From the NCBI RefSeq assembly GCF_053078305.1, contig NZ_CP166879.1: a DNA stretch of 64,000 nt; one strand, written 5' to 3'. The translations under genes were made by a program, and so were the position numbers. Shown piece by piece: positions 7,935 through 34,682 of the stretch. The notes under the pieces were generated by a model. It saw nothing but the letters and a program-made list of their open reading frames with translations, was not told the origin of the DNA and did not search any database. Within the stretch, counting starts at the first letter, position 1. Each line of letters begins with the position of its first letter.

Positions 7935-9602
7935 TTATTGCAAACGTTCTAATAAACGAGCCAGTTTTTTATTGCCGCCGGCGACTGGCGACCATTGGTA
8001 ATGCACAACCGGTTTGCTGGCGCTTTGTAGCTCCAGCGCAAAACTGCGTAATCCGATGTTAATCACGGCGACGTTTTCCAGTAATGACGGTGTGTGTTGC
8101 TGTGCGGCAGGCGAGAGCGGATGAATTAACGCTGCCGCCAGCAAGGTGGCTTCCGGTAGCGAACTCACGACCGCAATCCCCGCATCTTCCAGCGTGGCGA
8201 TTTGCTGCGAGCGGCATTGCGGGTCACGTTCGGTACCTGTCACCGTGGCAATGGCGTACAGCGGTTGGCTGTCTGAACGCGCGGCACAGGCTTTTTGCCA
8301 GGCGCTCACCAGCGAGGCGGCAGGATCGGCGGTCGCGCCGAAGCCAATCACGACATCAAGTAGCAATACGCGCACTGACAGTTTAGCGCCGAGATCGGCA
8401 ATTAACTGGTTGCGTAAGGTTGGGTCGATCATCGGATGGGGACGCCCGACGGTGTAGAAATCATCGCCAAGGTCAATAATCTGGTGACCATCGGCGTCGA
8501 GCATCATGCCGTGATGATGGGCATCATCGGCTTCCACGCCAAGGTGTCCGGCAAGTAATCCCGCCGCTTCGGCAGCCAGCGTACCGCCGGTATACAAACC
8601 GCAAATAAATCCGCTGCTGACAGGTGCTATTGCGTTACGTCGCGCCGTGACGCGTGAAAGCAGGCAAGCCAGGCGTGCGGCCTCATCCAGCGAGGAGGCA
8701 AACCAGACATTCTCGTCGCGGGCCACCGCCGGGGTATAACCTAAAAACAGCGCCACCGTCGGTTTGCCGGTTGCTTTCATGGCATTAACAATTTTCAGAC
8801 GCACCGCTTCGGCAGGTGGTTTTGAAACAAATGCCAGCACTTCGCTTTTCTCGTCTGCACTGAGCATTTCCAGCGCCGTCAGCGCACTGATGCCGCCCAC
8901 TTCACGGCTGAGGTCGCGGCCGCCAAGGCCAATCGCGTGAGTAATTCCCTCCCCTGCCAGCGCAATCTGCGAGCACAGCTCCTGAATCCCGGTACCGGAA
9001 GCGCCAATGACGCCAATATTGCCTTCCGGCATCACGTTAGCAAAAGCCAGCGGCGTGGCGGCAATCATCGACGTACCGCAGTCCGGCCCCATCACCAGCA
9101 AGCCTTTTTCTCGCGCGCGGGTTTTAAGTTGGATTTCATCTTCCAGCGTGACGTTATCGGAGAACATCATCACGTTGAGGTTGCGATCCAGCGCCTGATT
9201 CGCCAGCTCCGCCGCATACTCGCCAGCCACTGAAATCAGCGCCAGATTGGCATCGGGTAATTTCTGACAGGCACTGTCCCAGCGACGCACCTGCGTCAAG
9301 GACTGGCTGCTGCCTGCCCCCTGCGCCAGTTGTTTTAGCGCCTCTTCAAGCTGCTGCATAATCGCCTGCGCGATCCCCGCATCCGCCGCTTCGCTACGAA
9401 TTGCCACGCAAATATCGTTCGGCGTGGCGTTATTAAAATCGTCATGCCAGAAACCTGTGGTATCTAATAACGCTTTATTGGCGGGCGTACCCATCATTAC
9501 GGAAACATCATCAACATTTTCTGATTCGCTGAGTTTTCGTGAAATAATCATTAAACTGACCGAATCCTGAAAACACCCTTTTTTAATAAAGGCGTGGATC
9601 AT
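7935..9602 (-). CDS. fdrA: FdrA protein (succinyl-CoA synthetase alpha-like / CoA-binding)
   Basis: 555 aa ORF (MIHAFIKKGCFQDSVSLMIISRKL...) at the expected position. Confidence 0.9.
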   Translation of the reverse strand: MIHAFIKKGCFQDSVSLMIISRKLSESENVDDVSVMMGTPANKALLDTTGFWHDDFNNATPNDICVAIRSEAADAGIAQAIMQQLEEALKQLAQGAGSSQSLTQVRRWDSACQKLPDANLALISVAGEYAAELANQALDRNLNVMMFSDNVTLEDEIQLKTRAREKGLLVMGPDCGTSMIAATPLAFANVMPEGNIGVIGASGTGIQELCSQIALAGEGITHAIGLGGRDLSREVGGISALTALEMLSADEKSEVLAFVSKPPAEAVRLKIVNAMKATGKPTVALFLGYTPAVARDENVWFASSLDEAARLACLLSRVTARRNAIAPVSSGFICGLYTGGTLAAEAAGLLAGHLGVEADDAHHHGMMLDADGHQIIDLGDDFYTVGRPHPMIDPTLRNQLIADLGAKLSVRVLLLDVVIGFGATADPAASLVSAWQKACAARSDSQPLYAIATVTGTERDPQCRSQQIATLEDAGIAVVSSLPEATLLAAALIHPLSPAAQQHTPSLLENVAVINIGLRSFALELQSASKPVVHYQWSPVAGGNKKLARLLERLQ

Positions 9603-9840
9603 AACAACTCCTTAAAAATTGCACCCATGGCAATTGCACGAGCAGTGTTAATGTGGCGATTACGGTATCGATGACAACGGGTAAATAAGGTGATGAATAT
9701 CACACAGGGATTATTAACAAAAGAATTCAAATAACCGCCATGCTATTACGTGTTATTTTTTAATAAGCGTGGTTGTTTTAAAAACCAGGTTAAAAGCGAG
9801 CGGATTATCAAATAAATTCTAACTATATTTTTTTGCCTGT

Positions 9841-9858
9841 CTGGATCACATAATCCAG
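9841..9858. promoter_or_regulatory. Palindrome in fdrA-allD divergent promoter region (candidate regulator site)
   Basis: ctggat-cacata-atccag perfect 6-6-6 inverted repeat about 60 bp upstream of allD. Confidence 0.3.
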
Positions 9859-9918
9859 ATATTTTCCCTGTATGTTAATTGCAGTCATGCTTCACACCGT
9901 CGTTAAAAAGGAAGACAG

Positions 9919-10968
9919 ATGAAAATCAGTCGGGAAACACTCCACCAGCTAATTGAGAATAAACTCTGCCAGGCTGGGTTAAAACGTGAGCACGCTGCAA
10001 CCGTGGCTGAAGTATTGGTTTACGCCGATGCCAGAGGGATCCACTCTCATGGCGCGGTGCGCGTGGAATACTACGCGGAACGCATTTCAAAAGGCGGCAC
10101 CAACCGCGAACCGGAGTTTCGTCTTGAGGAAACCGGGCCGTGCTCGGCAATTTTACATGCCGACAATGCCGCCGGACAGGTCGCGGCGAAAATGGGTATG
10201 GAACATGCCATCAAAACCGCCCAGCAAAATGGCGTTGCGGTGGTCGGTATCAGCCGGATGGGTCACAGCGGCGCAATCTCTTATTTTGTGCAGCAGGCAG
10301 CCCGCGCCGGATTAATTGGCATTTCGATGTGTCAGTCCGATCCAATGGTGGTGCCGTTTGGCGGCGCGGAAATTTACTACGGTACTAACCCACTGGCCTT
10401 TGCCGCGCCGGGAGAAGGCGACGAGATCCTTACCTTTGATATGGCGACTACCGTACAGGCATGGGGAAAAGTGCTCGACGCCCGCTCGCGTAATATGTCT
10501 ATCCCGGATACCTGGGCGGTCGATAAAAACGGTGCACCAACAACCGATCCGTTCGCGGTACATGCTCTGCTCCCCGCAGCCGGGCCGAAAGGGTATGGCC
10601 TGATGATGATGATTGACGTCCTCTCAGGCGTCTTACTCGGCTTACCGTTCGGGCGACAGGTTAGTTCGATGTATGACGATTTACACGCCGGGCGTAATTT
10701 GGGGCAATTACATGTAGTTATTAACCCGAACTTTTTCTCCTCCAGCGAATTATTCCGTCAACATCTTAGCCAGACCATGCGCGAATTAAATGCCATTACC
10801 CCCGCGCCCGGTTTTAATCAGGTTTATTATCCCGGACAGGATCAGGATATTAAACAACGCCAAGCCGCCGTCGAAGGCATCGAAATTGTTGATGATATTT
10901 ACCAGTATTTAATTTCCGACGCGCTTTATAACACGTCATACGAAACGAAAAATCCCTTTGCGCAATAA
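9919..10968 (+). CDS. allD: Ureidoglycolate dehydrogenase
   Basis: 349 aa Ldh_2-family oxidoreductase; first gene of allDCE. Confidence 0.95.
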   Translation: MKISRETLHQLIENKLCQAGLKREHAATVAEVLVYADARGIHSHGAVRVEYYAERISKGGTNREPEFRLEETGPCSAILHADNAAGQVAAKMGMEHAIKTAQQNGVAVVGISRMGHSGAISYFVQQAARAGLIGISMCQSDPMVVPFGGAEIYYGTNPLAFAAPGEGDEILTFDMATTVQAWGKVLDARSRNMSIPDTWAVDKNGAPTTDPFAVHALLPAAGPKGYGLMMMIDVLSGVLLGLPFGRQVSSMYDDLHAGRNLGQLHVVINPNFFSSSELFRQHLSQTMRELNAITPAPGFNQVYYPGQDQDIKQRQAAVEGIEIVDDIYQYLISDALYNTSYETKNPFAQ

Positions 10969-26150: not shown

Positions 26151-26265
26151 TGAGGGACGTATTTGTATTAGTCGCGACTTGATCTGACACATGGCCTTGA
26201 AAGGTTGAGAGTTACCGGTTTTGATATGAGTGTCGAATCCTTATCCAAAACAAGAGGTAACTCTC

Positions 26266-26637
26266 ATGCTTCATACTGCCAATCCCGTCATCAAACACAA
26301 AGCCGGTTTGCTCAATCTGGCTGAAGAACTCAGCAACGTATCAAAAGCCTGTAAAATCATGGGCGTTTCGCGTGATACGTTTTATCGTTACCGCGAACTG
26401 GTCGCTGAAGGCGGTGTGGATGCGCAGATTAATCGTAGTCGCCGCGCTCCTAACCTTAAGAACCGTACCGATGAGGCAACTGAACAGGCTGTTGTTGATT
26501 ACGCCGTCGCTTTCCCGACACATGGTCAGCACCGGGCCAGCAACGAACTGCGTAAACAGGGGGTTTTTATCTCCGACAGTGGTGTCCGTTCTGTCTGGTT
26601 ACTCCATAACCTTGAGAATCTCAAAAGACGATACTGA
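26266..26637 (+). mobile_element. Truncated transposase (N-terminal HTH fragment, integrase-core IS type), likely pseudogene
   Basis: 124 aa from ATG at 26266 with SD aagagg; HTH-like segment (MGVSRDTFYRYRELV) but no catalytic DDE domain. Confidence 0.5.
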
Positions 26638-26669
26638 ACAAATTTTATCAGGTGACGTTCCGTAAAAAG

Positions 26670-26786
26670 TTGTATGGAGTTCTCGATGCAGTCGGCGCGA
26701 CTATCAGTACCCCCGCTGAACCCTGGACTATCGGGCCGCCGTACTGGGGCATGTCACCCTGGCGTGCCGCTGGTTTTCCGCTAATG
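26670..26786 (-). pseudogene. Vestigial rhs 5' (PAAR N-terminal) remnant with mutated start codon
   Basis: About 120 bp with clear nucleotide similarity to the 5' end of the main rhs gene (31740-31838); encodes [25 protein letters not shown], with the start ATG changed to ATT, then stops after about 45 codons. Confidence 0.55.
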
Positions 26787-27151
26787 GTTTATTTCCTCTT
26801 TCTTTCCCGGCAAGAATTTATTTTAATCCGGAAGGATTATTTATTTTCAGATAGGGACTCACATTAAACACGTAACATTTTAATTAATGCATGGCTGAAT
26901 ATGTATTACACAATGTCAGATATCGTAAAAGACCAGTGCAATTCTATGTAAACTCTCTGACTGTTCATTTTATTTGTTGTTTCAGGGTCGGAACTCACCC
27001 TCAATAAACAACTGAATACGAGTAGATATTCATCGTCTGAGCTATATGGCTTTACACAATAGTCGACATGTCTTTTCTCAGTCAGGAATTTTACTTTTCC
27101 TCACTACGAAGTTGACGACTTCGATATGGGATAGACTCTTAATTCAAGCAA

Positions 27152-27643
27152 TTACTCTGCACAAGCATCAGGCAATCCAGCTCCAATATTTGTTATAAAA
27201 TAATGCGTAACATTAATTTCACCAACAAAAAAAAGATTTACGCTATCCCCTTGCCCTGGTATTTTACCATATTTACACCACACTTTTTTTGTATCTGGAT
27301 CATTCTTTGATACGATTTTCGCCACTTGTTCCCTGGCCCTCACCGTCAATGTTTTCTTAAACCTCCCCCCATCATCGATTGTTAGGGAAAAATAAGAAAA
27401 AAAATAATCATCTTCTACATTTGTGGATATTGATATATCCACCGCTACGTGCGGAAAAAAATCTGGGAGCCATGTAAAAACTCCATCATTTTCTGGTATT
27501 GCCATATAGTTTATGTAATGCTTACTTACAAGAGATTCATCTTTGTGTAAATAAAGATAAGTAGTCACGCATAAAAAAACAACGATTATAATAGCAAAAA
27601 TAAATATTACCATCTTTGAGATGTTACTTGAGATAGCCAGCAT
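27152..27643 (-). CDS. Putative Rhs immunity protein (membrane-anchored)
   Basis: 163 aa ORF whose ATG overlaps the last codons of rhs; N-terminal TM helix ([22 protein letters not shown]); alternative start at 27613. Confidence 0.6.
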
Positions 27644-30600
27644 CTTGTAAAGCCTTTATCGTTTTTTTATGCTCTGGATTAATATAATCAATACATCTAT
27701 TTGAGCAATCTTGTGTTAATGGACATGTCAACCCATGTTCATTTACAGCCAAGTCTTTTTTATTATCTTCAATCATCTCAGAATGGGATAACTTTACTTT
27801 TCTGCCGTACATACCGAACATATTTAACCCGTAATCTCTAATCTCTTTTTCATAACCCAGCCCTTTCGCCGATCGGCTAACACCAGCGTCATTTAATTTA
27901 GACACTCGACAAAATGCCATACAATGGAAAAATTGATCAGTCCCACCTAAATTTAATCTCTTCATATCATCATAAGTATCAGATAATATATCCCATGCTC
28001 TTTGATGGTTTAGTTGTTCTTTTTTTCGCATTAACGCTACATCTGCAGGACTTAACCCTAATGGATCAATACCATTCACCGGATTCAGCGGATACGCATA
28101 CAGACTCCATCCCCCCGCCAGCCCAATCGGGTCCTGAGTAATATATCGTCCCAGCAACGGATTGTAGTACCGGTTCCGGTTATAATACAGCCCCGACTCC
28201 TCATCATACTGCTGCCCCGGCAGCCGGTACGGCTGGTGCAGGTGATGCGGGTTCTCCTCATTCAGCTGGTTGCCCCATTCATCATACTCCCCGCTCCACG
28301 CCGTATTGCCGTCTTCGCTGATGAGCGCCAGCGGCAGGCCCCGGTGGTCGCAGTGGTAAAGATGAACTTTTCTCGCCGGTGTGTATTCCGGCTCCACCTG
28401 TCTGGCCAGTTGCTCCACCGTCAGCCCGCACTGCGCAAGCCACGCCCGGCTTTCACTGCTCACGCGGTCTGCCCGGATTTCCCCCTCCAGCCTGTCCAGC
28501 AGCCCCACCAGTTCAGCCGGGAACACCACACCGTGGCCGTCTTCGCTCCCTTCCTGCTGCAGCTTCTCCGCCAGGCTGCGGCACTGCGCTTTCTCCCGTT
28601 CACCGTTGTCTGTTTCGATGCGGATGAGCGGCGCGAAGCTCCCCGGCTGGTATACCGTCTGGATACGCGTGGTGTCGGTCTGTACCGTCGTCAGCCGGTC
28701 GCCGTCCCATCCGTACCACGTCACCTCCGGTTTACGCGACAGCGACATCCATCCCGTCAGGTCACGCCCGCGACGCCACACCCGTTTTCCCGTCCGGCGG
28801 CCCAGCGGGTCGTAGAGGTAGCGGCTCTCGACCAGTGGCTCCTCATGCTGTATCCGCGTGTAAAACACCAGCCGGTGCTGGCTGTCGTAGTGGTAGTGGT
28901 GGGTCCGCTCGTCGTCCGTCCGTATCACACCCGTCGGGATGCGGTCCGTCTTCTCCGTCAGCCTGCCGTATTCATCGTAACGGTACAGGTAATGCGCGTC
29001 TTTGGTGATGCGGTTATCCGGCCACGCCGTGAGCGTGCTGTCCGGGTGCAGCTCCGGGTCCGGCAGGCGGTTGCCCGCCGGGTCGGTCGCATACGGGATG
29101 CGGATGTCCAGGTCCGGTGCGAGGGTGCGCACGCTCTCCAGCCTGCCCGTGGCGCTGTAGCCGTATTCCCGCGTCTGCCGGGGGGCGCTGATGCGCACCA
29201 GGTCGCCGTTGTCATTCCACCCGTAGTCACGGTCATATACCAGGCTGTTCAGGTGCTGGCTCTGTAACTGGCCTGCGGGGGTGTATGTGCTGGTCAGTTC
29301 GTATGCGGCATTACTGCCTGCCATGCTGCCGAAGCTGCGCACCGTCTCACGGTGCAGCCTGTCCCGCGTATACTCGACCAGCGGCGTCCCGCCCAGCTTC
29401 ATTCCCGCCAGGTAACCGCTGCCATACGTCAGCCACTCCACCGGCGGCAGGCTGTCCGGCGTGACGCGGTTTGCCAGCCCCTGTTCGTTGTATGCGTGTT
29501 TCGTCTCATGCTGCCACAGCAGTTCCCCCGTCTCCGGGTTCTCCACCGTCTGGCGTTCGCCGGTCAGGCGGCCCTTATCGTCGTAGCCGTAGTGGGCAGC
29601 GACACGGTGGCCTTCACTGAGATGGCTGATGTCTGTCAGCCAGCCGTGGCCGTCATACTGCCACTGCTCTGCCGGTTCACCGTTTACCGTGCGGTGAGTG
29701 ATACGGTCCGATTCATCGTAGTACCAGAGGATGACAAGTCCCTCATCCTCACTCTGTGTGAGTTTTCCGGTCAGGTCATAATGATAACGTTGCGTCCGCC
29801 CGTCAAAGCCGCCCTGCTGTACCAGCCGGTCCAGCGCATCGTAACTGAAGACGCTGTGGCTGCCGTTCTCGTTGGTCAGGCTGATGACACGTCCGGCAGC
29901 ATCGTACTCCATACTGCGCGTCAGCCCGCCCTGCGTGGTGCTGACCGCCTTTCCCCACGCATCGTACTGTGTCTCGCTCCGGTTGCCGTCCGGGGTGATA
30001 ACGGCAGTCAGGTCGCCTGCGGCGTTGTATTCATACCGCGTTTCACGGCCCTGTGCGTCTTTCACCGAGGTTAACCGGCCACGGTTGTCATAGCGGCGGT
30101 AAAGGCTGATGCCTTCCTCGCGGTGGACCGCCGTCATCTGGCCGAAGCGGTCGTATTCATAACGGGTCTGGTAGCCCGAGCAGTCGGTGAACGCCAGCAA
30201 CTGACCGTAGCGGCTCCACGTCATCTGCCGGGTGCTGCCCGTCGCATCTGTTGTTGTGGCCGGTAATTCACTGTGCGCATCATCATAGCGGTAGCGTACT
30301 GTCTCCCCGCTGCGCGATGTCTCCGTTACCAGCCTGTCCAGTTCATCATATGCCCGGCGGCTCTCCAGCCCGTCCGGGGACACCACCGCCGTCAGCTGGT
30401 TCCCGTCGTTATAGTAAAATTTCGTCTCCCGCCCGTCCGGTGTGGTGATGTCCGTGATGTCGCCTGACACCACATTCAGACCGTACTCTGTCCGCCGTCC
30501 CGCCGCGTCCGTCTGCGCCGTGAGCCTTCCTGCCGCGTCATACCCGCTGTGCGTGATGCTGCCGTCCGCCTGTTCCTTCATCACCACCCGTTTCAGCCCG

Positions 30601-31838
30601 GCCTCGCCTTCTGTATGCAGCACCTCACGCCGGTTCAGGCTGTCTGTGACGGTGATGCGGTCCTGCTCATACTGGTAGCAGTAACTCAGGCCTGCCGGGT
30701 TTAGTTGCTCCACCACCCGCCCCGCATCGTCGTAGCGGTAGCGCATCTCCGGCCTTCCCGCGTAACGGTGCGCCACCATCCGCCCGGGGTGCTGCGCGTC
30801 ATATGTGAAAGCGCGCACCTGCGTATTGCTGCGGTCATATACCGCCAGCAGTTCACCGGCCTCCGTATACGTGTACCGCGCCAGTGGCGCACCGGGCAGA
30901 TTCTCCGGGTATGCCGGGTCGTGCATCAGCCACACCGCCGAAAGGCGGATACCCCTGTCGGGGCCGTATTCGGTACCGGGCAGTGTGTCGGGGAACGCTG
31001 AGTCTGAAAGAGGGCGGGGGGTGTCAGGGGAAGATAAGGAAGCGGTGTGCTGTTTACGGGCCTCTTCCGCCCGCTGCGCCTGCGTGGTCAGCACCAGACG
31101 GAACTCCCGCCCGGCACCGTCCGTCACGCCGGTGATGTCCCCGGCCAGGTCGCCTGCGGCCTCACGCCGGTACACCAGCGTCCGCCCGAAGCGGTCCGCC
31201 ATCCCGGTAAGCACCCGGTACGGCGGCAGCGGCGCTGGCAGTACGTCCTCAGCACCCGGCACCCGCTCAGACCACCCCAGTATCCACCACGGCCCCTGTG
31301 CGCTGTTGGTCGCCAGGTAAAGATGCGGGCTTAACCGGATATCCGGCGGCAGCGACGCCCACAGCCGTGCCAGCGTATGGCCGTCCGGCTGTGCTGCCTT
31401 ACCACCGCGCACCAGCCACAGGGACTCGCTGCGGCTGTACACCGCCTCACCCGGCAGCAGCGGCTCAAAGTGAATGCTCCGTCCGCCGTCGTTGTCGTTG
31501 AGTACCAGTGCATCATCGCGTAGCTGTAAGCGGATATCAGAAGGCGCTTTCCAGCCGGGGCCAAAAATCCCCACCGGTGCAGGCGTCTTCGTCCGGTAGC
31601 TGCTGTAGGTGCGGGAGAGAATGAACGGCAGCGGGCCGGGCAGCGCAAGGTCCGTCTCGCCGGGCAGCACCTTCGCCCCCAGCAGCGGATTTACCGGGTT
31701 GCCCGAAGTCATCCCGCCCGGACACACCGAGCACGACACGCCAGTTGGCGCGCCAATTCTTACACCTGCCGAACCCTGGACAATGGGACCGCCATACTGA
31801 GTCATATCTCCCTGACGCGCCGCTGGTTTTCCGCTCAT
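27624..31838 (-). CDS. rhsD: Rhs-family polymorphic toxin (PAAR N-terminus, YD-repeat shell, C-terminal toxin)
   Basis: 1404 aa with PAAR-like N-terminus ([25 protein letters not shown]), many YD/RHS repeats, and DPxGL boundary ([10 protein letters not shown]) before a roughly 150 aa C-terminal tip. Gene symbol is by synteny only; the tip may differ from K-12. Confidence 0.92.
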
Positions 31839-32267
31839 ATAAAGTGCCCTTTTAGTTATTGTTCATATCCCTGTGTTAGCAACAAAAAAAAATAAAATGA
31901 CACACAAGACCAACTAATGTATTTATATATTTTTCACATAAACTTATTTGTTCTCAATCAACAACAACTGTTATTACAGGTCACTTTCAATATTTTATTA
32001 AACTAAAATTTTTAGCACAGATGAATTCATCATCAACAAATTCACTATATGGATAATATCCATTCAACGCATATGATTTATGATTTTATTAGTCTGAGTT
32101 ATTTTTGTAGGGCTATATTTAAATTATTAAACTCCACCGATTCAGATTAATATCAGCAATAGAAAGATAGGAAATCACCAATTCAATAACATCATCAATG
32201 AAACATATTGTAGAATTAATTTAAACAAGGCGTTCCATTCAACCAGAACGCCCCTTATTTACTCTCA

Positions 32268-34682
32268 TCACCCCGCAAACTGCCTGAACAGCGCCTTACC
32301 CTTAACCAGTCTCGCGCCCAGCCAGCCGCCGAAAAGCGACAGCAGCAGCGCACCGCTGCACGGCAGAACAATCCACAATCGCCAGTCTGGCTCCCACGGA
32401 AAATCAAACACTTTCGCCTGCAACACTGCCAGCGCCGTTTCCGCACCAATTGCGGCCACCAGGCCGGAAACAAACCCAAGCATGGCGAACTCACACCACA
32501 ACGTGGTACGCAGCAGTTTTTTCCCCGCACCGAGTGTGCGCCACACCACCAGCTCCTGATGACGCTGACGCATTCCCACCTGCACCTGTGCCAGCAACAG
32601 CAACATACCGCAGGCGGTGACCAGCACCACCATCACCTCCAGCGCCCGACTTACCTGCTCCAGCACCTGACCGACCTGTTTTAAAATCGCGCCAATGTCT
32701 AACAGGCTAATGGTAGGGAACTGGCGGTTGAGTTGCGTCAACATGCCGTTGCCATTCTCACAGCGGAAACTGGTAAGCCAGCTCTGCGGTTGCCCGTCTA
32801 ATGCCCCTTCAGGGAAAATAAAATAGAAATTAGGCCGCAAACTTTCCCAGTCCACTTTGCGCAGGCTGGTCACTTTAGCGCGGAACTCCTGGGTATCGCC
32901 CATAAAAGTCACGGTATCGCCGAGGGTAACGTTTAAGCGTTTCGCCAGCCCCTCTTCCATCGACACTTCATCAGCTTTTGGCGGCCAGTTACCGGCGACA
33001 ATCGGATTATGATCGGGCCGCGTATTTTGCCAGGTAAGATTGAGTTCGCGGTTGAGCGCCTCATCTTCATTGCCTTCTGTCGGCTTGCCGTTAATCGCCG
33101 TCAGCCGCGCTCGCACCACCGGATAAAACGATTCCGAGACTATCTGATGTTCCGCGAGGAACGCTTTTAGCGGCGTAACCTGTTCTGTGGCGATGTTGAT
33201 TAAAAAGTAGTTCGGGCTTTCTGGCGGTAGCTGTTGTTGCCAGCGGTCTAGCAGATCGCCACGCAACACCAGCAGCAGCGCCAGCAGCATAAAGGAGAGC
33301 GAAAAAGCTGAAAGCTGGCTTAACGTTGACCACGGCTGACGTAACAGGCGGCTAACCGCCAGGCGCAGAGGCAGCGATTTCAGCGTCATGCGGCGAAGTA
33401 CATTCAGCAGCATCCAGCCCAGCACACCGCACAGCAAAGCCAGTACTACCGCGCCCGCCAGCACCGCCCAGAGCAGCATACTGCCGCCCATTAATCCGGC
33501 AAGCAGCAGCACAACCACCACACTGACAATCGGCAGATAAAACTTCAGCGGCCAGACGTTCGCTACCACATCATTACGTAATACGCGTAAAGGCTGCGTT
33601 GCCAGCAACAAGCGGTACGGTCGTAGCCCCACCAGCAGCGAGATGACTGTCATGGTGCCAAGCGCCCACAGCCACGGCCAGAGACTGGCAGGCGGTAGTG
33701 CAGCAGGCAGAACGGGCTTGAGCAGCACCATCAACACGTTTTCGAACAACAGGCCTATCGCCCCACCGGTAACGGCTGAAAGCGCCAGCACCATCAACCA
33801 CTGACCGACGATTAGCTTACGCAGTTGCGCTCGCCCTGCCCCCAGCGTTTTGAGGATCGCCACCAGATCGTAGCGACTGCGACAGTAATGATTCATCGCT
33901 ACCGCCACTGCTGCCACTGCCAGCAGCAAGGTCAGAAGCGCCGAAAGCAGCAGGAACTGTTGCGAGCGTTCCATCGATCGCCCCAGCGCGCCTTCGTCCT
34001 GTTCCAGACCGTACCAGCGTTGTTCGGGTTTAAGCTGAGGTAACAACCATTTCTCATAGCTGTCGAGCTGGTTCTCGCTGCCGCCGAATTTATAACGCCA
34101 GGTGACCCGACTCCCCGGCTGCACGGCTCCGGTTTTATCGACATCAGCCAGATTCATCATTAGACGCGGAGCCATCTGGAAGGGGTTAAAACCGGAATCC
34201 GGTTCCTGAATCACTTCTCCGGCAATCCGCAAGGTGGCATCGCCCACGTCAATGGTGTCGCCCGTTTTCAGGTTAAGCAGTGCCATCAGGCGTGGGGCCA
34301 GCAATACGCTGCCCGCCTGCGGTTTCAGGCCAGGGGGATTGGTTTGCAGATCGCCATACATCGGGTAGATATCATCCACCGCTTTGACGTTCGCCAGCTG
34401 CGGTGTGTCGCCTGCAAATGTCATGGTGGCGAAAGTCAGCTGCTTGCCGACTTTCAGGCCGCGCTTTTGCGCTTCCTCCAGCCATGCTTGCGGCACTTCG
34501 CGCGAACTGCGCAACGCCCGATCGCCCGCCATAAACTCCCGGCTTTGTTGGCTTAAGCCCTTCTCCATGCGATCGCTGATATTGCCCAGCGCCAGCACGC
34601 AGGCCACCGCCAGGCTTAGCGCCAGCCAGACAATTAATAGCGACGGCGAACGCCATTCGCGCCAGAACCAGCGTGCAATCAT
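32268..34682 (-). CDS. ybbP: ABC transporter permease (FtsX/MacB-like)
   Basis: 804 aa polytopic permease; start overlaps the ybbA stop. Confidence 0.92.
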   Translation of the reverse strand: MIARWFWREWRSPSLLIVWLALSLAVACVLALGNISDRMEKGLSQQSREFMAGDRALRSSREVPQAWLEEAQKRGLKVGKQLTFATMTFAGDTPQLANVKAVDDIYPMYGDLQTNPPGLKPQAGSVLLAPRLMALLNLKTGDTIDVGDATLRIAGEVIQEPDSGFNPFQMAPRLMMNLADVDKTGAVQPGSRVTWRYKFGGSENQLDSYEKWLLPQLKPEQRWYGLEQDEGALGRSMERSQQFLLLSALLTLLLAVAAVAVAMNHYCRSRYDLVAILKTLGAGRAQLRKLIVGQWLMVLALSAVTGGAIGLLFENVLMVLLKPVLPAALPPASLWPWLWALGTMTVISLLVGLRPYRLLLATQPLRVLRNDVVANVWPLKFYLPIVSVVVVLLLAGLMGGSMLLWAVLAGAVVLALLCGVLGWMLLNVLRRMTLKSLPLRLAVSRLLRQPWSTLSQLSAFSLSFMLLALLLVLRGDLLDRWQQQLPPESPNYFLINIATEQVTPLKAFLAEHQIVSESFYPVVRARLTAINGKPTEGNEDEALNRELNLTWQNTRPDHNPIVAGNWPPKADEVSMEEGLAKRLNVTLGDTVTFMGDTQEFRAKVTSLRKVDWESLRPNFYFIFPEGALDGQPQSWLTSFRCENGNGMLTQLNRQFPTISLLDIGAILKQVGQVLEQVSRALEVMVVLVTACGMLLLLAQVQVGMRQRHQELVVWRTLGAGKKLLRTTLWCEFAMLGFVSGLVAAIGAETALAVLQAKVFDFPWEPDWRLWIVLPCSGALLLSLFGGWLGARLVKGKALFRQFAG

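Follow-up and report, generated by a model that had tools for sequence, protein, structure and literature searches.

The closest described counterpart of the DNA studied here is the intergenic region between ybbP and rhsD of Escherichia coli K-12. Under the designation 522099_304 ybbP(+)/rhsD(+) it is one of the 78 "promoter islands" listed by Panyukov and Ozoline (2013, PMC3661553, Table 1), a class of AT-rich regions with dense potential start sites that are bound by RNA polymerase and yield little productive transcription. This island carries the mark "A", denoting that it was H-NS-bound in all three compiled ChIP data sets (Grainger, Kahramanoglou, Oshima), and it is regarded as foreign by four predictors (GIST, Nakamura, Lawrence, Price) (PMC3661553). 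For promoter islands as a class, deletion of hns raised the output of at least four, with ybbP/rhsD not named among them (PMC3661553). Genomic SELEX with RpoD holoenzyme gave two peaks between ybbP and rhsD, located at W3110 positions 522060 and 522472 (Shimada et al, 2014, PMC3946193). In the same study the spacer was flagged for H-NS sites, and a sigma-70 promoter, TTAATA-17-TGTAAT, was proposed for it (PMC3946193).

A second point of reference is provided by the Rhs elements themselves. The composite described by Jackson et al (2009, PMC2935791) consists of a GC-rich core, an AT-rich tip with AT-rich adjacent DNA, and a downstream remnant of an rhs 5' end. The locus between ybbA/ybbP and ybbB (mnmH) is "locus 3" in that study, the main text of which makes no mention of a promoter, an AT-rich region or ybbP. 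In EDL933 the rhs gene of this locus is z0651, "RhsD" (PMC7216683). Silencing by H-NS is known from type VI secretion (T6SS) loci: the T6SS/rhs region of Salmonella SPI-6 is H-NS-silenced (PMC7043789), and the T6SS of EHEC is active solely in an hns mutant (PMC7216683).

We analysed a window of 64,000 nucleotides from contig NZ_CP166879.1 (assembly GCF_053078305.1), in which the corresponding locus is organized as follows.

32268..34682, minus strand: ybbP, 804 aa, an FtsX-like ABC permease (Pfam) and the backbone gene upstream.
31839..32267, minus strand: AT-rich spacer filling the gap from the stop of ybbP to the start of rhs, probably the leader of the RhsD element and its regulatory region.
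31836..31851, minus strand: Shine-Dalgarno-like AAGGG (31851..31847) and rhs ATG (31838..31836), read from the sequence.
27624..31838, minus strand: rhs, 1404 aa, with Pfam matches to RHS_repeat (2.7e-70), RHS and DUF6531.
28081-31838, minus strand: GC-rich core of rhs, 63.8% GC.
27624-28080, minus strand: AT-rich C-terminal tip of rhs, 35.4% GC.

In near-identical genomes RefSeq names the two genes ybbP and "RHS element core protein" or rhsD, and the rhs start used here is the annotated start of K-12 rhsD. All features by which an Rhs element is recognized are present, namely an ORF with RHS/YD repeats, the GC-rich core, the AT-rich tip and a 163-aa ORF overlapping the stop. The closest match to the region is O157:H7 strain 493/89 with 99.4% identity over 31700-32400. 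In that strain, which is also the closest complete genome (L001, 5372-9139), the orthologous rhs is annotated as a frameshifted pseudogene; the ORF of 1404 aa is intact here.

The spacer extends over 429 bp (31839-32267), exactly from the stop of ybbP, whose TGA lies at 32270..32268 on the minus strand, to the start of rhs. Its GC content is 27.7% compared to a window mean of 54.8% (sd 7.0% for windows of 429 bp), and the adjoining 500 bp contain 64.4% GC on the rhs side and 59.0% on the ybbP side. No other stretch of this length in the 64 kb is as poor in GC: 0.013% of the 429-bp windows are equally low, every one of them overlapping the spacer. In steps of 50 bp the GC content stays between 20 and 32% from end to end, with abrupt edges at ybbP and rhs. 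Runs of at least 8 nt made up of A and T only occur seven times more often than in the window (21/kb vs 2.9/kb), and TpA steps 2.6 times more often (10.7% vs 4.1%). Other low-GC patches of the window, likewise measured over 429 bp, are found at 41112-41770 (minimum 30.8%) and 9450-9960 (minimum 35.4%). A first-pass annotation made from the letters alone had called this stretch an AT-rich region reaching from the ybbP stop to the start of rhs, markedly richer in AT than its flanks, lacking a credible ORF and situated upstream of rhs. The coordinates are exact (the length being 429 bp), the composition agrees, and "upstream" is correct in the transcriptional sense because ybbP and rhs both lie on the minus strand.

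As to the coding content, the longest ORF on either strand of the spacer is 33 aa long and none is credible. We regard it as extremely unlikely that an unannotated gene, be it a small RNA or a micro-protein, is hidden in the spacer. Several tiny ORFs of 20-33 aa do exist, and the spacer is annotated in none of the RefSeq E. coli genomes carrying it, which leaves some room for such a gene; however, these ORFs are short, rich in AT codons and without evident Shine-Dalgarno context. A scan of positions 27000-36000 with the Rfam 15 covariance models returned no match even at E<=1, and the presumed leader RNA of 131 nt folds no better than its shuffled versions (z = +0.74). At identities of 98-99.5% between carriers, no protein-coding or structural signal is extractable from the alignment. 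The repeats within the spacer are merely pairs of 10-14 nt, which is the level expected by chance.

The K-12 MG1655 orthologue of the spacer is 98.8% identical and differs by four substitutions and one indel. The published binding data can thereby be mapped onto the present sequence, together with the other elements of the spacer.

31921..32223, minus strand: approximate equivalent of K-12 promoter island 522099_304, placed by its offset from the ybbP stop and probably correct within a few nt.
31973..32001, minus strand: proposed sigma-70 promoter TTAATA-17-TGTAAT (PMC3946193), with its -10 hexamer at 31978..31973.
31929..31957, minus strand: second promoter-like site TTGAGA-17-AAAAAT, a 9/12 match to the consensus, pointing in the direction of rhs.
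32009..32013, minus strand: A5 run equivalent to MG1655 position 523086 in the K-12 alignment, 7 nt upstream of the proposed -35.
32227..32254, minus strand: stem-loop GGGGCGTTC-N10-GAACGCCTT, then GTTTAAATTAATT, from a terminator-like scan; it starts 14 nt after the ybbP TGA.
31884..31892, minus strand: T9 homopolymer in the leader, length-polymorphic, its last T 46 nt upstream of the rhs ATG.

In our view the spacer likely acts as leader and control region for an accessory RhsD polymorphic-toxin island at ybbP-mnmH which is subject to xenogeneic silencing by H-NS. That the region is an H-NS-bound promoter region had been suggested by the first-pass annotation, along with a look at H-NS ChIP data from related strains. 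The binding part of this suggestion is supported by the published ChIP on the 98.8%-identical K-12 orthologue, which was bound in all ChIP studies compiled in PMC3661553. Given this degree of identity, the same binding of H-NS and RNA polymerase would be expected in the strain analysed here. Such H-NS binding would lower the transcription of rhs, and the spacer may thus control rhs expression. Our literature search, which extended to K-12 and excluded the supplements of Kahramanoglou 2011 and Ueda 2013, returned no reporter or hns-mutant expression study of rhsD.

The properties by which promoter islands are delimited are found in the spacer, that is, high AT content over at least 300 bp, a high density of promoter-like sites and the association with a strain-variable gene. 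Promoter-like -35/-10 pairs occur approximately 5 times more often in the spacer than in the window (23/kb vs 4.7/kb, five on each strand) according to a consensus scan, the published criterion for promoter islands being PlatProm. Compared to random sequence of matched composition there is no excess of such sites (10 observed vs 15.3 +/- 5.3), and a second promoter scan gave a similar picture (2 vs 1.4). The density is that expected from composition, so the "promoter island" character follows from the richness in AT. The proposed promoter as a 29-mer has a single exact match in the 64 kb (32001..31973) and none in shuffled sequence, and it is identical in 7 out of 7 aligned strains. If it is used, the transcription start site would fall near 31966, leaving a 5' UTR of about 128 nt.

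We further looked at two sequence properties connected with H-NS. Lang et al in 2007 reportedly derived the consensus TCGATAAATT (10 bp) as a high-affinity nucleation motif for H-NS. The spacer contains one match to TCGATAAATT with two mismatches (32033-32042), and the window-wide counts are not above those of shuffled sequence. Curvature, a further property the first-pass annotation had proposed to check, was judged by the helical phasing of AA/TT as a proxy. A phasing of 10-11 bp is absent from the spacer: the band power observed is matched by 465 out of 500 shuffles. There is thus no indication of strong intrinsic curvature.

These observations bear on the idea that the spacer is nothing but a relic of composition: non-coding filler of the Rhs element, bound by H-NS incidentally, with rhs read through from ybbAP or elsewhere and the spacer itself without any regulatory role. 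We think this unlikely. That composition fully accounts for the promoter-like density agrees with it, and so does the AT richness of other parts of the island (34-35% GC); with 27.7% GC, however, the spacer is distinctly richer in AT than these. A 1-bp deletion at MG1655 position 523086, adjoining the proposed -35, was fixed in 4 out of 4 motility-selection lines and proved phenotypically neutral when rebuilt (PMC5441876), which is also in line with the idea. That a neutral change was fixed four times might be due to a pre-existing double mutant or to hitch-hiking with clpX. Against the idea speak the binding of the K-12 spacer by RNA polymerase holoenzyme on its own, at two peaks (PMC3946193), and the invariance of the proposed promoter in every aligned strain. 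The stem-loop behind ybbP points in both directions. It is significantly stable (32254..32227, -17.4 kcal/mol, z = -2.94, none out of 200 shuffles equally stable), which counts against the idea, but its tail GUUUAAAUUAAUU is an interrupted, weak U tract, which makes read-through conceivable. We take the stem-loop 32227..32254 to be a probable weak terminator of ybbAP of the intrinsic type, leaky because its U tract is weak.

Under the reading we prefer, that of an H-NS-silenced control region, the course of events might be the following. The stem-loop just after the ybbP stop would end most ybbAP transcription. It would be followed by approximately 300 bp of 72-80% AT DNA that could be bound by sigma-70 RNA polymerase holoenzyme alone and be coated by H-NS in vivo, and then by a leader of about 130 nt with a slippage-prone T run and a modest ribosome-binding site. 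H-NS together with StpA or Hha may polymerise on the AT-rich tract and occlude or trap RNA polymerase at the one or more promoters of rhs, which would keep the toxin gene essentially silent in ordinary growth. Its expression would be possible only once H-NS repression is relieved.

The T run in the leader deserves separate consideration. Its length is T9 in the present strain, in K-12 and in O157 strain 493/89, T8 in O157:H7 strain F8798 and in strain C, and T7 in EBJ003 and PCP07014. The length differs even between near-identical leaders (K-12 with T9 vs strain C with T8, and 493/89 with T9 vs F8798 with T8). With a 61-bp probe over the run 1283 genomes were identical and 1591 matched at 95-99%, the sampled rows of the latter being mostly 1 bp shorter; about half of the carrier genomes thus differ from the T9 allele over this probe, and some of the length calls may reflect errors of long-read assembly at homopolymers. 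A (T)9->10 change in the rhs leader also arose in laboratory evolution (PMC11541549).

One could conclude from the natural alleles in otherwise near-identical leaders, from the share of carriers deviating from T9 and from the laboratory change that the T7-T9 homopolymer renders rhs phase-variable, as a contingency locus, on top of or instead of control by H-NS. We hold this to be very unlikely. The run lies outside the coding sequence and is not located between the two hexamers of any recognisable -35/-10 pair, which makes neutral slippage the default reading; it is also part of no terminator-like or other significant structure, as the leader fold given above indicates. Simple neutral slippage accounts for the data, and possible long-read errors further reduce the weight of the length differences. 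The wider proposal of a functional T7-T10 contingency tract, by which slippage tunes or switches RhsD toxin expression both within a population and from lineage to lineage, is to be considered equally improbable. If it were true, an "orphan" T6SS effector would be phase-variable in E. coli. A phase switch of this kind is compatible with silencing by H-NS and does not exclude it.

The spacer is found in 2867 out of 5426 complete E. coli genomes (53%) with 98-99.5% identity and is single-copy per genome. Exact 24- and 25-mer leader probes gave no match each in 100,044 species-representative genomes, a search which misses diverged copies and in which the E. coli representative is evidently without the RhsD island; the leader therefore is undetected outside of E. 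coli by exact probes. No match to the spacer was obtained in a phage collection. A plasmid collection yielded four, two of them in "plasmid" records of chromosome size (4.8 Mb and 1.3 Mb) that are probably mis-filed, one in a Klebsiella oxytoca record of 19 kb and one, a partial match, on an E. coli plasmid of 129 kb.

The comparison with strains lacking rhsD places the spacer within a larger variable unit.

26153..32261, unstranded: strain-variable island between mnmH and ybbP, with blast boundaries from the comparison with two rhsD-less strains (L002, L003).

In the rhsD-less strains similarity to the window ends at 32258-32262, which is 6-10 nt short of the ybbP stop codon, and restarts at 26152, 2 nt beyond the stop of mnmH. 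The whole spacer is therefore part of the variable island and not of the backbone. The first-pass annotation had assumed a horizontal acquisition, and the location inside the island as well as the presence in 53% of the E. coli genomes bear this out in the sense that the spacer is accessory. Besides the leader and rhs, two further elements lie in the island, a ylbI-like rhs 5' remnant (26691-26785) and an ORF of immunity-like type (27152..27643). By segment the GC content is 27.7% in the leader, 63.8% in the core, 35.4% in the tip, 34.3% in the immunity-like ORF, 35.2% in the next spacer and 64.2% in the rhs 5' remnant. The contents of the island types diverge starting a few nt after the ybbP stop: one of the rhsD-less strains (L002) has IS200C, a dinQ-like gene (toxin) and REP sequences, another (L003) has a tssD effector of the Hcp-ET type and four DUF2931 genes, and a third strain (L005) has an IS1-associated deletion with 42 bp of the leader left.

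In a comparison aimed at purifying selection, the leader differs from that of K-12 by fewer substitutions than the third codon positions of the neighboring ybbP (0.93% vs 5.7%, p = 1e-5). Compared to the pooled third positions of mnmH, ybbA, tesA and ybbO (1.85%) there is no difference (p = 0.26).

Some further observations concern the rhs gene itself. Its 5' end (31400-31838, the first 438 nt) shows 9-16 differing sites between strains with leaders that differ at 0-5 sites; between K-12 and strain C we counted no substitution in the leader and 13 in the rhs 5' end. This variation suggests gene conversion among rhs paralogues that ends at the start codon, by which the divergence of the rhs 5' end between the window and K-12 is probably inflated. 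The ylbI-like remnant at the far end of the island (26691-26785) shares 79% identity with the initial 95 nt of rhs. We also considered whether the rhsD leader is homologous to the DNA upstream of this remnant (26786-27151, 35% GC) and rejected it, as the similarity ends exactly at the ATG. In the rhs gene analysed here, the RhsD core continues into a C-terminal tip which in K-12 exists separately as the orphan pseudogene ylbH, and next to it lies an intact 163-aa ybbD homologue (27152..27643) as the immunity-like ORF. Neither the rhsD tip of K-12 nor the ybbC module is present. The junction of core and tip lies in a repeated core segment of 252 bp (28081-28332). The exchange of the tip (27152-28332) looks like a C-terminal displacement or a recombination with an orphan tip, and the arrangement fits the C-terminal displacement model (PMC2935791).

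As the case indicates, a control region probably silenced by H-NS can be flagged correctly from base composition at a first reading. The ybbP-mnmH locus is a recombination hot spot whose T6SS effector cassette differs between E. coli lineages, every cassette having an AT-rich leader of its own. How and when rhsD escapes from silencing is a general question for orphan Rhs toxins, for which the locus offers a convenient test case in view of the published H-NS and RNA polymerase maps and the natural alleles of the T run.

Returning to the known systems, K-12 island 522099_304 is the orthologous locus: it is flanked by the same genes, is 98.8% identical over the spacer and has the proposed promoter, the hairpin and the T9 run in identical form. 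The spacer is the O157-lineage copy of this H-NS-bound promoter island, already known and not a new kind of element; as the published island is its orthologue, it is ordinary and already explained. The locus differs from K-12 in its O157-like background, a lineage with a functional-type T6SS, and in the other C-terminal tip on rhs; the H-NS and RNA polymerase binding data refer to K-12 and not to the O157-like strain analysed here.

With SPI-6 and the EHEC T6SS the locus shares an AT-rich control region before variable T6SS-effector genes and, probably, the silence in laboratory culture. In contrast to these systems, to which there is no sequence homology, rhsD here is an "orphan" effector located away from the T6SS cluster. 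H-NS is the silencer in SPI-6 and EHEC, and for rhsD derepression is suggested by analogy.

The Rhs composite of Jackson et al (PMC2935791) has the same succession of GC-rich core, AT-rich tip with adjacent DNA and downstream rhs 5' remnant, while in the present island no piece is as rich in AT as the upstream leader. The leader is single-copy in nearly all genomes, so it is not common to other rhs loci. The Hcp-ET island (tssD-toxin and DUF2931 genes), finally, shares the position between ybbP and mnmH and likewise has a hairpin directly after the ybbP stop and then an AT-rich spacer. Its leader is different, being non-homologous, shorter (168 bp, 23.8% GC) and associated with another effector family. 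As the RhsD and the Hcp-ET island each possess a hairpin and an AT-rich leader, the layout recurs at this hot spot.
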